A stretch of 64,000 nucleotides of DNA from Methanotrichaceae archaeon (GCA_963803145.1 CAWDLW010000012.1:160001-224000), one strand, 5' to 3'. Positions 20,034-26,115 are shown, counted from the first letter of the stretch. The notes: generated by a model not told the origin, from the letters alone. Program-made: numbers and translations.

Positions 20034-20691
20034 ACGTAATACCCCACAGCTTGTTGTGGATGGGATAAAGGGCATCCGTATACAACTTAGGGATGGATCA
20101 GCTAGCCAATTGTGATTTAATGCGGCGACGCCTCGCATGCCTCACTGTTTGCAGCGTGAGATAAAATACCGGTAAGAACCTTTTTCATCGAACTTGGAAG
20201 GATCACCTATAATTATATTATCCTTGCCATTCTGTTAGCTGTCGCTTTACATTTTCAAAGGTTGGGTCTTTGATCCTTTCGAAAATTTTAAGCGCAGACT
20301 GAGCATAGTCAACAGCCTTAGATTGTTCCCCTATCTTATATAATACGAGGCTTATATTCCATAAGGCATTGCCCTCTCCAGCAGGGACTCCAATCTTACG
20401 GAAGATTTCTAATGATTGCTCATAGGATTCGATGGCCTGGCGAGATTCGCCTAGTCTCTCATAGGCCACACCAAGGTTGCCTAAAACGTTTGCCTTTCCT
20501 TTAAGATCTCCAATATTATTAGCAATTTCTAATCTCTTTTCATAATATTCAATTGCCTGGATAGGTTCGCCTAACGCACAGTATGCAATGCCTAAATTAT
20601 TTAAATCTGCACATTCTCCTTTCAGATCTCTTAATTCTCTGTCAATTATCAGAGCTTTCTTATAAAATTCAATAGCATATTGAAGCTTACC

Positions 20692-21829
20692 GAGGATTCC
20701 TATTTACTTGTATCCTAAGGGCGGTTTTTTTAAATCGACTCTAGATTTGCCTTACGATGTTCGCTATTCTTGGTCTAACCTGTTTTTTTTCAGTTAATTC
20801 TCGATAGCATCCGCTATCCCTAAATGACATTTGCCTTTTTAAGAGTACAAAGCTGATACAAGTTAAAAGCGAAAGCGGTAACTATCATTTTCACATGCAC
20901 TCTTCTGACTGATGTAACAAGCACTCTTCCAGCCTCGAAAACCCTCTTGATTACAGCATGGGGCCTTTCGCCAGGCGATCTGAGGATACTGATCAACTGA
21001 TTGCGTTCTTTATCAAGATCAGAAAGAGGTTTATCAGTAGTCCTGCGCTTCATTGTAAAATCAATACCTTTGGCCTTCACACCGAAATATCCTCTATCTC
21101 TGAAAACTGGCACGCCAGGGATAGAGAGATCAACCTGACTGTCATGCAGTGATGCAGTCGAGGTCTCTATATCACGTATTAGGCTGTAATCGATATCAGT
21201 TATTTGATGTAACTTATATCCGAAGTGAGTTTCATTGCCTTTCTTAGCCCATGTGCCATCCTTGCTGCGACGTGTCTTAGCCTCATCGCCACGTGGTTTC
21301 TTTGACTCCGATGATCCTGGATCTGCTTCTATAAAGGTAGCATCCTGAACAATTCCGCGTCTGATCTTCAATCCTTTTGCATCCAACTGTCTTTGAAGTT
21401 CAGCCCAAACAAGCCTATCTGTTCCTGTCTCCGCCATTCGTTCTTTGAATGACCATATAGTTCTGGAATCAGGGAACTGATCAGGAAAACCAAGAAATGC
21501 CATAAATGATATGCGATCAGCCATTTGCCGTTCAACAGCCAGATCGCTCAGGCCATACCACTGCTGGAGAATCAGGATCCTGAACATTAGAATAACATCA
21601 CAGTTGGGCCTTCCTCCCTTCTCGGTCTTATTAGTATACATCCCTTCCAGAAGAGGACGAAAGGGAACCCAATTGATCAATCCAGATACTTGAGCTAATT
21701 TAGACTCCTCTTGCTTTGCATTTAGACCTTTCAATACCCAAGTAGTAAAAGAATCCATAACAATAAATACTATTTGCTGTATTTAACACTTTCGATGCTA
21801 AAGCAGGGGGTAGGTTTATAGGAATCCTC
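20692..21829 (-). mobile_element. IS5-family insertion sequence
   Basis: 16-bp TIRs GAGGATTCCTATTTAC / GTTTATAGGAATCCTC (14/16); 4-bp target duplication TACC at 20688-20691 and 21830-21833. Confidence 0.93.
20820..21758 (-). CDS. IS5-family DDE transposase
   Basis: GGRP, LQQWYGLSD, PDSRTIW, QDATFI, GYKLH, RDRGY, R..GERP; intact 312 aa. Confidence 0.93.
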   Translation of the reverse strand: MDSFTTWVLKGLNAKQEESKLAQVSGLINWVPFRPLLEGMYTNKTEKGGRPNCDVILMFRILILQQWYGLSDLAVERQMADRISFMAFLGFPDQFPDSRTIWSFKERMAETGTDRLVWAELQRQLDAKGLKIRRGIVQDATFIEADPGSSESKKPRGDEAKTRRSKDGTWAKKGNETHFGYKLHQITDIDYSLIRDIETSTASLHDSQVDLSIPGVPVFRDRGYFGVKAKGIDFTMKRRTTDKPLSDLDKERNQLISILRSPGERPHAVIKRVFEAGRVLVTSVRRVHVKMIVTAFAFNLYQLCTLKKANVI

Positions 21830-23850
21830 TACCTATTGATAGATAAATAGTCCCTATATTCCCTAGAACTGTTTCTTCTCCGACAAGATCTTTAATTTCT
21901 TGGGAGATCTTAAGGCTTTTATTATAGAAATCTAATGCAATATGAGGCTTACCTAGTTTTAAATATATATTACCTAGATCACATAATGCTGTATATTCTC
22001 CCTTGATATCCCTTAAATAACATGAAATTTCCAATCGCTTTTCATGCATCTGAATACCCTGTTGAAATTTCCCAGTTTGCGAATAGATTCTGCCTAAAGA
22101 ACTCAAAGCTTTGCTTGCCCCTCTTAAATCCCCTCTCCCTAAATGGATTTCTAAAGCCTTCCGATACGATTCATCAGCTTTTTTTAACTTCCCCAGATGC
22201 TGATAAACCCTACCGAGATTGCCACAGGCGTTGCCTTCGCCATACTTATCTCCAATTTTATGGGCTATATGAAGAAATCTCTTAAAAAGTTTAAGGGCAT
22301 TATGGTAATCTCCAAAATGAATATTGGCGTTACCCATATTGCCTAGTACATAACACTCTAATTGGCGATTTCTAATCTTATGGGCGACAGCAAGTGCCTG
22401 ATTATAATAATCAATAGCAAGATGCATATCTCCTAGATCAGCACAAGCTAAGCCTAACAGATTAAGGAAAGCTCCCTCGTTGTTGTAATCTCCAATAGCA
22501 AGCGCAGCCTGTAAGCCTGCTTTGGCTACCTTAACTCTTTCTGTTGAATAGCCTTGTAAATCTAAGTAATTATCGAACATTAAGGTTATTTTACAGACAG
22601 CATCCCATTCACTAGCATCAAGGCAAGCAGATTGTAGCGCTAAAATATGAGCGCGATTAGTATCAATGATGATCTTACCTGGTAGACCCGGACCCCCTTG
22701 CTCCTTTAATAAGTTACAGTAATATTGAGCAAGGCGTAATAACATATCATGCTCCGTTACTAGATCTTTTCGTGCGTATGTATATGCTAATGTATGCGCT
22801 ACGTGATAGAACGTATCAGGTCTTATTATCAAACCGTAATCTACTAGCTCCCCCAAATGGCGATCAGCTTCATGTCTAGGTATATTTAAGGCTGTAGCGA
22901 TGAGTTCTGGACCAAAAGGGCTCATTGCTAATATGCCAGCCACCCTAAATGAGGCGCGTGATAACTCACTTAGCTGATCTAAGCTACGCTTCATTAATAC
23001 AGGTATACTTTGATGCTGCCGCTCTCCTAGGTCTAGGGCTGCCAGAGGTGTGGCCTCAAGCCATGCAAGATAATCCTCGGCTTGTTGATGGCATTGAGAC
23101 ATATATTTTCCTGCTAGAACGATCGCAAGGGGTAAGCCCCCCAGGAATTCACAAATCCTATTAGCTGATACTTCATCGGCTGCATAATTATGCCCCCATG
23201 CACGTAATAGCTGGATAGCTTGGTCTTGTGGTAAAGGTGATAAATCACTCCAATCGGCAGGAGCATCTCTATGACGTCGACTAGTAATGATAATACCACA
23301 ACTCACAGCAACCTCTAAGATTACATCCAAATTATCGGCAGATTCAGCACCATCTAATATAAGAAGGGCTTTGCGACCTGCCAATGCACGGCGAGCAGTA
23401 TCGATTGGGCTGGGTCGTGGATCTTCTCCAAATGCACGGGCTAATGCCTCTAAGGCAAGACTGGCCTGGGGTTGATGGTAAAATGTATGAAAAATCACTC
23501 CATCTGGAAATTGACTGGGGGGACTATTATCAGGGGCAAGGCGCCAAAGTATCTCAGATACAAGAGCAGTCTTGCCGATACCTCCTGGACCACATAATGT
23601 AACTGCATAACCAGGCTTTAATGAATCTAATAAGGTTGCAAGTTCCTTTTCACGGCCAACAAAATGGTGGGTTCGGGGCGGCTTCTGCAGAGGGATATGT
23701 AGTGAAAGAGACGGCGCGTTAATAATGACTGGCCCATGAAACTTTCCAGAAAGCACTGGGCCATCTGCATTTCCCCTTATGTTAGTCTGGGAACCATCTC
23801 CAGCTTTATCCTGTTGGCTCATGGTGGATTCCCTTTATTATCCGATATTT

Positions 23851-24288
23851 TCATTTGGATTCTCTTGCGTTAACTGAACCGTGGAAATTGCCTGAAAGCA
23901 CAGGGCCATTTACATTACCAGCGATGTTTGTCTGTGAGCCATGGATTATTTGTCCACGCTGATCGAAAACACTGCTGGCTGTACCTTTCTCTTCAATTGC
24001 TTCAATTAACTTGCCTACTTCTTCAGCGAACTTCGTGTCCTTTTCCATTTTTTCAGCTAAGACATCCTTAAGTGCTGCCTGCCTATCTTCTGACTCAGGT
24101 TTCTCTTTTGCGCGAGCTAGCGTTTGCTCGGCGAATGTGTCTCCTTTGAATTTATTCTCGACTGCCTGGCATAATTCCACAAACTTTTTGCCGAGTCCCT
24201 CGCCAGCAGTTTTGATAAATGAATCTCCTCCCTTGGCAAGATAGGGGGCTGCTGCAGCTGCGATTAATCCAACATCGACAGGTAACAT
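23851..24288 (-). CDS. BELL/HeLo-like small helical effector with C-terminal amyloid-like motif
   Basis: Hydrophobic N-helix (VGLIAAAAAPYLAKGG), charged helical body, C-terminal GSQTNIAGNVNGPVLSGNFHGSV that is 18/23 identical to the NLR N-terminus; 28 nt upstream of the NLR start. Confidence 0.8.
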   Translation of the reverse strand: MLPVDVGLIAAAAAPYLAKGGDSFIKTAGEGLGKKFVELCQAVENKFKGDTFAEQTLARAKEKPESEDRQAALKDVLAEKMEKDTKFAEEVGKLIEAIEEKGTASSVFDQRGQIIHGSQTNIAGNVNGPVLSGNFHGSVNARESK

Positions 24289-24441: not shown

Positions 24442-25760
24442 CTATTTATCACGCTTTTGTTTTTCAATAGGGCTGTCGAGCGTAACTTCATGAATGAAAG
24501 TTCCTGAAAGTACGTGTCCATGCACATCGCCGTAAATATTCGTTATGGCTTTTGCTCCTATGAACAAAGAGGTTAATAAGACCAGCTTTAAAGTTTCAAA
24601 TCTCTGTTCTAATGTTGCTGTATCTTGAGATTCTAATAGAGCAAGGGTTTCAAGATACTCTTGTGCCTCCTTGGGAAATTTTTTGCAGTGAAGCTTCAGA
24701 AGTGGAACAATCTCCAGCAAATAACGATCTGCAGCTATTGGTGAGCTGATATCTTTCAACCCCTTAGTTGCATCGTAAGTAAGCTTTCCGAAATCTTCAA
24801 GAGCAGTTCCCTTAGAGCTTTTACAGAGCTTCCGTGCTGCATCCTCTACATCCTTAAATATAGTCTTGATTTTATCATCGATGATCGGGATTCCCCTTTC
24901 AACCATAGCAGCATCTACTACCTTGGAAGCAAAAGGTGCTCTGCCCCTTACCCTCTCCAAGCAATCCACTGCCTGGAAGCAATATCTAGTGTAGGCTTTG
25001 AGATCCTGTTTCCGAGATATCATATCTTCCACGGTATATGTCTTGACCTCCCAGAGAGCCTTAGATAGGTTATCCACAGCTTCAAGGAGGATCTCCTCCA
25101 TACTCTCAGAGACTTTTACTGCCTCCTTAGCCTCTTAGCCTCAGCTAGATATCTCTGGATCTCCTCTGCCTTAGATACATCTCTAAACAAAAGACTGTGT
25201 AGTGATTTATAAAAGGGCAGACAAAAAACAGCATGGTTCTCATTTCTCCAATTCCCCGGGCTATCCGAGGATTTTTGGAAGAATTCGATCGCTTCTTCTA
25301 GGTGAGCTTTGAGATCCCTATCATCGGCCTCAGTTGCCTTGAAGATGCATGCCCGACCTAAGGAATGATAGGAGATAGACCTGATGGCTTCATCCTTCTC
25401 CTTAGAGAGCCTATCTAATTCTCTCCAAACTAGAGACTTGTAAGGCAAGCTAGGGAATAACGATCCAAGCACGCAGCCTACTTCCCATCGTACATAGCGA
25501 TTCCGGTCATTAGCTAATCTGTGAAGATCCTGCCATACAAGATGATCGCTAGGCAAGTTAGGGAACGCCAACTCAATCGCGGCAACTGCATATTTTCGCA
25601 CAAGAAAATGGTGATCCTGGGTTAGCCTATGTAGGTCTTGCCAGGCAGCTTCTTTGTCATCCAGATGGTCAAACTCGTTTCCGAGCAGTGTTGCAGCATG
25701 TTGCCTATGTTCTGTACTCTCAGAAATTGACATCTCATGGATCTCTGCGTAGGATACCAA
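24442..25760 (-). pseudogene. HEAT-repeat protein with C-terminal amyloid-like motif, frameshifted
   Basis: WQDLHRL..D...VR HEAT repeats; deleting one copy of tandem TTAGCCTC (25127-25142) fuses ORFs 25116-25760 and 24442-25101 (..YLAEAKEAVKVSESMEEILL..) into 436 aa. Confidence 0.85.
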
Positions 25761-25890: not shown

Positions 25891-26115
25891 TTAGCCTTTA
25901 TTCTCCTTTCTCATCACCTCCACCCGCACCGAAAACACTGCCGACTCTAATGGCTCATCCAGCGTATAGAATGCCTCTCTTGAATGCTTCTTGGCCATTT
26001 CGGCGATCATCTGACCGTAAATCTGGTCTTCCTTCTTCAGCGCCTTCGAAGCCTTCAGCCACCTTGTCGAGACTTCCTTCACGGCCATTCTCACGATCTC
26101 AATACTTCGGCCCAC
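25891..26115 (-). CDS. Small conserved archaeal protein (MGRS..VR type, reminiscent of the small ORF found in PolB2 neighbourhoods)
   Basis: MGRS..VRM..ALKKEDQ..H..EA..PLES pattern recalled from that family; no polB2 in window. Confidence 0.55.
   Translation of the reverse strand: MGRSIEIVRMAVKEVSTRWLKASKALKKEDQIYGQMIAEMAKKHSREAFYTLDEPLESAVFSVRVEVMRKENKG

Follow-up and report, generated by a model that had tools for sequence, protein, structure and literature searches.

The 64,000-nucleotide stretch of DNA from a Methanotrichaceae archaeon analysed here, referred to as the window (GCA_963803145.1 CAWDLW010000012.1:160001-224000), carries on its minus strand two adjacent genes that share a terminal motif, namely a gene for a small helical protein of 145 amino acids (aa; 23851..24288), described below as a Bell-like effector, and a gene for an NB-ARC/TPR protein of the NOD-like receptor (NLR) type. 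The NLR gene follows collinearly after a gap of 28 bp as an open reading frame (ORF) of 668 aa and exists in two parts: a 5' part at 21830..23822 encoding the N-terminal motif, the NB-ARC NTPase and the first TPRs, and a 3' part at 20218..20691 encoding the remaining TPRs and the C-terminus (Pfam TPR_12/TPR_2/TPR_1 on 20218-20469), severed from the first by an insertion sequence (IS) of 1138 bp that lies on the same strand within the TPR array (20692..21829). Read head to tail on the minus strand, the order is a HEAT-repeat ORF, a 219-aa ORF, the 145-aa ORF and the 668-aa ORF, with 14 nt separating the first two and 153 bp the second from the third.

The 145-aa protein ends in ...HGSQTNIAGNVNGPVLSGNFHGSVNARESK, its C-terminal stretch being GSQTNIAGNVNGPVLSGNFHGSV followed by six residues, and the 668-aa protein starts with MSQQDKAGDGSQTNIRGNADGPVLSGKFHGPV, in which nine residues precede the motif GSQTNIRGNADGPVLSGKFHGPV (residues 10–32; 23727..23795, minus strand; E 1.2e-7 with the motif hidden Markov model, HMM). 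The effector-side 23-mer lies at 23872-23940 within a longer form of the motif covering residues 108–140, FDQRGQIIHGSQTNIAGNVNGPVLSGNFHGSVN (23869..23967, minus strand; alignment A1, motif HMM E 2.8e-19). The 23-mers of the effector C-terminus and the NB-ARC/TPR N-terminus are identical at 18/23 residues. An earlier reading of this DNA from sequence alone (the sequence-only reading) had given the ORFs, motif coordinates and identity correctly throughout, and its statement that the two proteins are otherwise unrelated is borne out by BLASTP, in which the sole shared segment is 19/30 identical (E 2e-9) and the next alignments have E >= 1.5. Codons differ at 12 of the 18 identical motif residues, and the match has therefore been kept at the protein level, by selection on the peptide. 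Given these codon differences and a nucleotide identity of 50/69, we rejected the possibility that the motif match arose through a recent duplication of DNA.

A chance origin of the motif match was likewise rejected, by two genome-wide controls. Firstly, the C-terminal 50 aa were scored against the N-terminal 60 aa of the neighbour for 3,433 adjacent same-strand ORF pairs covering the whole genome; the window pair ranks fourth (score 96, median 19) and a second module of the genome, described further below, ranks sixth (score 89), while the other six of the top eight pairs are artefacts caused by repeats (a tandem repeat, antisense TPR frames, a CBS pair and low-complexity sequence). The tandem repeat, which lies outside the window at C12:120909-121700, places the same peptide in neighbouring ORFs and may be a CRISPR array. 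Secondly, a motif HMM built from homologues in other genomes, with the genome's own sequences excluded, gave six matches at E < 0.01 when searched against 92,689 six-frame genome segments; all six lie within the two modules, and the next match has E 0.65. Both modules contribute an effector C-terminus and an NLR N-terminus, and the remaining two sites are the C-terminal end of the 219-aa ORF and the N-terminal start of a 139-aa ORF that belongs to the second module. Effector residues F108, Q110, Q113, Q119, T120, N121, I122 and G133 are invariant in the 37 sequences of alignment A1 and mark the most conserved C-terminal block. A comparison with RHIM and PP profiles, which the sequence-only reading had put forward as a check, found no match: the Pfam models for RHIM, PP (Ses_B), HET-s and sigma gave no match to the effector at E <= 10 and none to the effector, NLR or 219-aa ORF at E <= 0.1, searches in which the HMMER filters drop most weak matches. 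Complex prediction with two effector tails and one NLR N-terminus scored 0.03 against a mark of 0.32 and provides no evidence either way.

The AlphaFold2 (AF2) model of the 145-aa protein, based on the family alignment, comprises a helical domain in residues 1–103 (helices at 6–19, 21–27, 30–47, 51–62, 67–83 and 85–103), with per-residue confidence (pLDDT) mostly 80–90 in residues 6–103, followed by a tail (104–145) that is disordered from residue 104 with pLDDT < 50. The first helix is Ala-rich and hydrophobic (VGLIAAAAAPYLAK). A search of 5.8 billion cluster representatives recovered 164 homologues at E <= 1e-3, the named ones among them belonging to Methanothrix or Methanotrichaceae. The family consensus starts with MDP.SLAA.AAPFLAKGAEAF and ends with FDQRGQTVHG.QTNI.GNV.G.V.SGTFSGPVN, and the corresponding profile, searched against 1.84 billion cluster representatives, reached 1,829 at E <= 1e-3 and 348 at E <= 1e-10. 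Ten of these profile relatives were looked up, of which the four that are named come from Ca. Electrothrix, Anaerolineae (two records) and one cyanobacterium, all filamentous lineages. The N-domains of the relatives from filamentous bacteria align with the effector family and their C-terminal beta-type motifs differ, as has been described for Bell domains, on which BASS motifs are interchangeable.

Pfam holds nothing significant for either the 145-aa or the 219-aa protein and NCBIfam and PADLOC add nothing, PADLOC having no model that matches the effector; none of these databases contains a Bell model. The Pfam label PF20701 (HetE-N), precomputed on some homologues, was set aside, as hmmscan of five such homologues and of the genome failed to reproduce it. 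Several relatives carry further domains on the same polypeptide. A Bell-like domain and motif are followed by a CHAT protease at L004:5983-7134 and L014:6001-7131 and in the proteins P0158 and P0177, and other relatives, P0159 and P0185, have a PNP_UDP_1 phosphorylase or DUF4062 domain in this position. An alphaproteobacterial protein of ~133 aa (L031:5953-6351) has an effector-type N-domain with 37% identity to the window protein (alignment A3) and a different Gly/Asn/Val-rich C-terminal motif, with ORFs containing TPR-like repeats, recognised by eye, upstream.

The 668-aa protein is matched in Pfam by NB-ARC (E 1.8e-7, above the family cut-off), AAA_16 and TPR_12/1/2/8, and its NTPase motifs are intact in sequence (Walker A GPGGIGKT, GLPLA). 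The NB-ARC domain begins at approximately residue 50, leaving no room for another N-terminal domain, in agreement with the sequence-only reading that the motif stands there without any other effector domain.

Pairing of the two motif copies is conserved across homologous loci. We examined 33 loci, 31 from species-representative genomes and two of the window genome, and in 26 of them a Bell-like gene is followed by a same-strand NLR-type gene with a matching N-terminal motif, whereas in two (L018, L021) Bell domain, motif and NB-ARC form a single polypeptide. The sequence-only reading had named loss of such pairing as an outcome that would speak against it, and the loci point the other way. The remaining loci comprise three at contig edges, one remnant (L030) and the alphaproteobacterial locus, which has no downstream NLR. 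Among the loci counted as paired, the NLRs of L009 and L024 were recognised by eye from their N-terminal sequence and Walker A, the small gene of L029 is frameshifted, and L004 and L014 have a CHAT domain fused behind the motif, with the NLR that matches located ~2–2.6 kb downstream. Motif variants co-vary within pairs; EANAPV, for example, is present in both partners of L005 and of L008. Cognate combinations score 69.7 on average over 21 pairs, as against 47.3 for non-cognate ones, with 0/10,000 permutations reaching the observed mean, although relatedness among the loci inflates this test. One locus departs from the two-gene form: at L002:5908-10947 two NLR genes come after a single effector gene. 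They differ in clade, each has its own version of the N-terminal motif, and the part of the effector tail that is matched is not the same for the two clades.

Gene pairs of the Bell/NLR kind are already known, the genus Methanothrix included. Dyrka et al. 2020 (bioRxiv 10.1101/2020.01.06.895854) report Bell domains in Methanosarcinales, with Methanothrix soehngenii AEB69174.1 in their Bell alignment, as well as two Methanosarcinales Bell/NLR pairs detected via pairwise alignment, for which that preprint describes no match to the BASS1-10 profiles. According to Dyrka et al. 2021 (PMC8086366), a peptide of residues 5–29 of AEB69175.1, characterised as 'resembling BASS3', is amyloid-like as judged by cross-beta signatures in Fourier-transform infrared (FTIR) spectra and by Congo red binding. 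This passing report and single peptide assay are what we found in the literature on archaeal Bell/NLR pairs. The proposal of an archaeal Bell/NLR-like module made in the sequence-only reading thus holds for the architecture and the paired motif but not for its being a first archaeal version, a place taken by these two studies. Features that appear to be unreported are the NLR cut by an IS, the 219-aa ORF with a weaker motif copy, and an intact second module on another contig.

When the AEB69175.1 peptide is scored with the profiles built here it reaches 29.6 bits with the effector-side HMM and 40.4 bits with the NLR-side HMM, and these scores place it in the motif family of the window pair. 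The M. soehngenii pair AEB69174.1/AEB69175.1 therefore shares taxonomic family, layout and motif family with the pair in the window, and NLR N-termini near-identical to that of AEB69175.1 adjoin members of the effector family in L002 and L029. The window NLR falls into a different NB-ARC clade from the M. soehngenii NLR, with orthologues in L002 (the second NLR), L014, L004 and L018 (E 1e-118 to 1e-150), and, unlike the M. soehngenii pair, it is disrupted by an IS. The homology link to Bell is indirect: it runs through the presence of AEB69174.1 in the published Bell alignment and the fit of its neighbour's peptide, and the effector profile reaches proteins of the same size from filamentous bacteria. 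Four features of a Bell/NLR pair are found in the window: an all-helical effector with a hydrophobic first helix (145 aa, where ~120–140 aa is usual), a collinear NB-ARC and TPR gene, a terminal motif shared over the expected length of ~15–25 or more residues, and paired conservation.

A similar organisation characterises the Actinobacteria and Cyanobacteria Bell/NLR pairs (BASS1-10), in which, as in the window, the effector is short and helical, has a hydrophobic first helix and is encoded a few bases upstream of an NB-ARC/TPR gene, and a motif of ~25–35 residues rich in G, N, Q and V occupies the effector C-terminus and the NLR N-terminus. In the fungal systems NWD2/HET-S and PNT1/HELLP, as presented by Dyrka et al. 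2020 (bioRxiv 10.1101/2020.01.06.895854), the motif at the NLR N-terminus templates the one at the C-terminus of a membrane-targeting effector from the adjacent gene; these share their logic with that proposed for the window pair and have no detectable sequence relation to it in motif or domain. Amyloid signalling from an NLR to a membrane effector is established in fungi; as antiphage defence it has been demonstrated a single time, in E. coli. For this latter case, Ibarlosa et al. 2024 (bioRxiv 10.1101/2024.11.07.622273) describe Bab/Agp (BASS11) as an abortive-infection system with a shared amyloid motif. As that preprint presents it, Bab/Agp resembles the window in being an adjacent effector/sensor pair with a shared motif and a conserved hydrophobic N-terminal effector helix, and its 'MEPIS' region is comparable to the MDP.S of the window family consensus. 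It differs in that its effector is a shorter Babybell domain and in that function was demonstrated there, whereas the window pair is read from its sequence.

We consider it probable, at roughly three chances in four, that the window locus is a Bell/NLR amyloid-signalling-type module of a Methanothrix-family methanogen, homologous to AEB69174.1/AEB69175.1, for which templating, membrane attack and an abortive response to virus are proposed, with the copy in the window most likely switched off. By analogy with the systems above, the TPR array of the STAND NTPase would sense a trigger and the NB-ARC domain would oligomerise, bringing the N-terminal motifs together so that they could adopt a cross-beta fold. 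This fold would in turn serve as template for the copy of the motif in the C-terminal tail of the 145-aa protein, whose helical domain would then free its hydrophobic first helix, damage the membrane and kill the cell. The most probable purpose of such a response would be abortive defence against virus, an antiviral cell-death role suggested by the E. coli Bab/Agp system.

Several observations weigh against this reading. The assayed M. soehngenii peptide corresponds to the FDQRGQ..QINVAGD half of the motif whereas the window NLR shares mainly the QTNI.GN..GPVLSG.FHG half with its effector, and given this difference the peptide assay is not directly transferable to the window NLR. Structural comparison adds little: Foldseek against the Protein Data Bank (PDB) returned nothing for the effector model at E <= 1e-3, and the best VIA-align match among 48,161 chains is the coiled-coil (CC) region of the ZAR1 resistosome with Z 5.6 (76 residues aligned at a root-mean-square deviation of 3.4), which is within helical-bundle noise. 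The structure searches accordingly yielded no significant HeLo, MLKL, CC or Bab fold match, and of the membrane-damaging fold anticipated in the sequence-only reading it is the helical domain that is recovered and not a HeLo/MLKL/CC assignment, the best Z of 5.6 being at noise level. The neighbouring genes encode an Lhr-type helicase, a hybrid histidine kinase and hydrolases and do not obviously form a defence island. The genome has an estimated contamination of 6.8%, and its assignment to Methanotrichaceae is based on homologue names and an McrA gene that it encodes.

The difference between motif halves also bears on whether the shared segment works through amyloid at all. It might instead be a docking or recognition peptide, acting by beta-strand addition or as a site for a third factor such as a protease, with no templated cross-beta folding. 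A CHAT protease domain directly after the motif in L004, L014, P0158 and P0177 would fit a cleavage or recognition site, and the published amyloid assay lies outside the GPVLSG.FHG half. We nevertheless regard this explanation as improbable, firstly because aggregation with cross-beta signatures is reported for the related M. soehngenii peptide in PMC8086366, and secondly because the composition of the motif (G, N, Q and beta-branched residues), its length and its terminal positions match BASS motifs as the cited reports describe them. Moreover, the natural Bell-motif-NB-ARC fusions retain one motif copy as a linker, which a protease-site model does not require.

Turning from mechanism to the purpose of the proposed amyloid-signalling module, its distribution is informative. 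Matches at E <= 1e-5 occur in 42 of the 105 species genomes of the family and in 8 of its 16 genera, some of them being motif-only matches at NLR starts; such patchiness is typical of defence genes. A module of this kind could also control a non-immune process, such as programmed death in filaments (fragmentation, development) or strain recognition. The authors who described prokaryotic NLR/Bell pairs term their biological role a blind spot in the report concerned, the neighbourhood in the window contains no other defence genes, and the distribution follows multicellular lineages, all of which agree with a non-immune role. Set against this, Bab/Agp, the only functionally tested bacterial amyloid pair in the literature cited here, is described as an abortive-infection system, and the patchy presence (42/105 genomes) together with the disruption by an IS fits dispensable defence genes. 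We therefore hold a non-immune role to be unlikely, if less so than a docking peptide. The locus and its relatives supply concrete sequences with which function could first be tested in Archaea. Across the Methanothrix family the system is widespread, with co-varying pairs, natural fusions and multi-partner versions, and the window copy is a damaged example of it that adds no new principle.

The formal NLR ORF extends over 21816-23822 (668 aa), with the final four codons and the stop situated across or within the end of the IS, a point absent from the sequence-only reading; the TPR array resumes at 20218-20691. The insertion carries a minus-strand transposase ORF at 20820-21758 (Pfam DUF772 E 6e-19, DDE_Tnp_1 E 4e-11), a 12-bp terminal inverted repeat (GAGGATTCCTAT) and a 4-bp target duplication, GGTA, at 21830-21833 and 20688-20691. 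It thereby shows every feature of a DDE-transposase IS, namely a transposase ORF, inverted repeats, a target duplication and several copies, of which there are 13 in the 4.1-Mb genome, seven of them, including the copy in the window, at 100% identity over their full length. Removal of the IS and one GGTA copy leaves a single open frame of 820 codons, which fits the lengths of the NLR orthologues in L002 and L014 (792 and 833 aa). In four sediment metagenome runs the IS occurs on contigs with other flanks, alongside a few 151-nt pieces of the module; none of their contigs joins across the IS, and the runs are silent on an IS-free allele and on expression. The seven identical full-length copies and the IS with other flanks in the metagenomes suggest that the insertion is recent. 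We thus posit that the window NLR is most likely switched off, its TPR sensor being split by a recently active IS.

A third, weaker copy of the motif is found in the upstream HEAT-repeat gene, which is frameshifted in the window. The 219-aa ORF (24442..25101, minus strand) has a helical domain and a C-terminus at 24481-24543, TNIYGDVHGHVLSGTFIHEVT, that resembles the shared motif: 12/21 residues are identical to the effector tail (BLASTP E 3e-5), and the motif HMM gives it E 1.4e-4 genome-wide. The ORF has no match in Pfam, NCBIfam or PADLOC and, besides itself, only two homologues among 5.8 billion cluster representatives, in which residues 1–180 are common and are followed by a longer, unrelated C-terminus. 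Its AF2 model is helical with a mean pLDDT of 62.6; Foldseek against PDB found nothing for it at E <= 1e-3, VIA-align gave helical-bundle-level matches only (best Z 9.3, adenylosuccinate lyase), and the ESM Atlas offered no lead (best score 0.76). A scan of metagenomes for relatives of the 219-aa ORF produced one contig (L033), which at 2.9 kb is too short to reveal neighbouring genes. On this contig HEAT repeats and the 219-aa-type domain are united in one 756-aa protein that aligns across both the 219-aa ORF and the 214-aa HEAT-repeat ORF of the window (25116..25760, minus strand; Pfam HEAT_2), and the frame change in the window relative to L033 falls at ~25134, at an 8-bp tandem duplication (25126-25141). 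By this alignment the window holds a frameshifted HEAT-repeat gene, of which the 219-aa ORF is the tail portion, and a motif-like end has taken the place of the original one.

What this third copy signifies can be read in two ways. We lean slightly towards the motif-like tail being a relic of an old rearrangement and not a working third partner, in which case the module would be a plain two-gene pair. This is suggested by the position of the 219-aa ORF as the downstream half of a frameshifted HEAT-repeat gene, by the different, longer C-terminus in which L033 and the two homologues end, by the weaker match of the tail (12/21) and by the presence of the 219-aa gene in no other locus of the 33. 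A relic is, however, less readily squared with the tail being the fifth-best motif match in the whole genome (E 1.4e-4), with its place at the very C-terminus of an ORF on the same strand 153 bp upstream of the effector gene, or with the lack of a recent DNA copy of the effector tail in this ORF, in which the longest shared stretch is an 8-nt match. More tentatively, and in our view doubtfully, one NLR may serve more than one client: the upstream HEAT-repeat/helical protein would have gained a C-terminal motif and would be, or have been, a second amyloid-controlled partner, belonging to a novel class of effector or regulator. This idea extends to a two-segment Methanothrix motif, with an FDQRGQ.V.G.QTNI part and a GN..GPVLSG.F.GPVN part that would be read by different NLR clades, linking one effector to several sensors as in L002.

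Outside the window, on contig C34 (C34:5462-8442), lies this genome's second, uninterrupted module of the motif family. It consists in order of an effector gene, the 139-aa ORF and an uninterrupted 644-aa ORF. The 139-aa ORF opens with the motif's first half, FDQRDQIIDGPQINI, followed by an uncharacterised domain, and the 644-aa ORF starts with the full motif and matches the window NB-ARC region (phmmer).

Upstream of the HEAT-repeat ORF in the window, a 74-aa ORF at 25891-26115 has more than 12 paralogous matches scattered over the genome, with E down to 1e-31.

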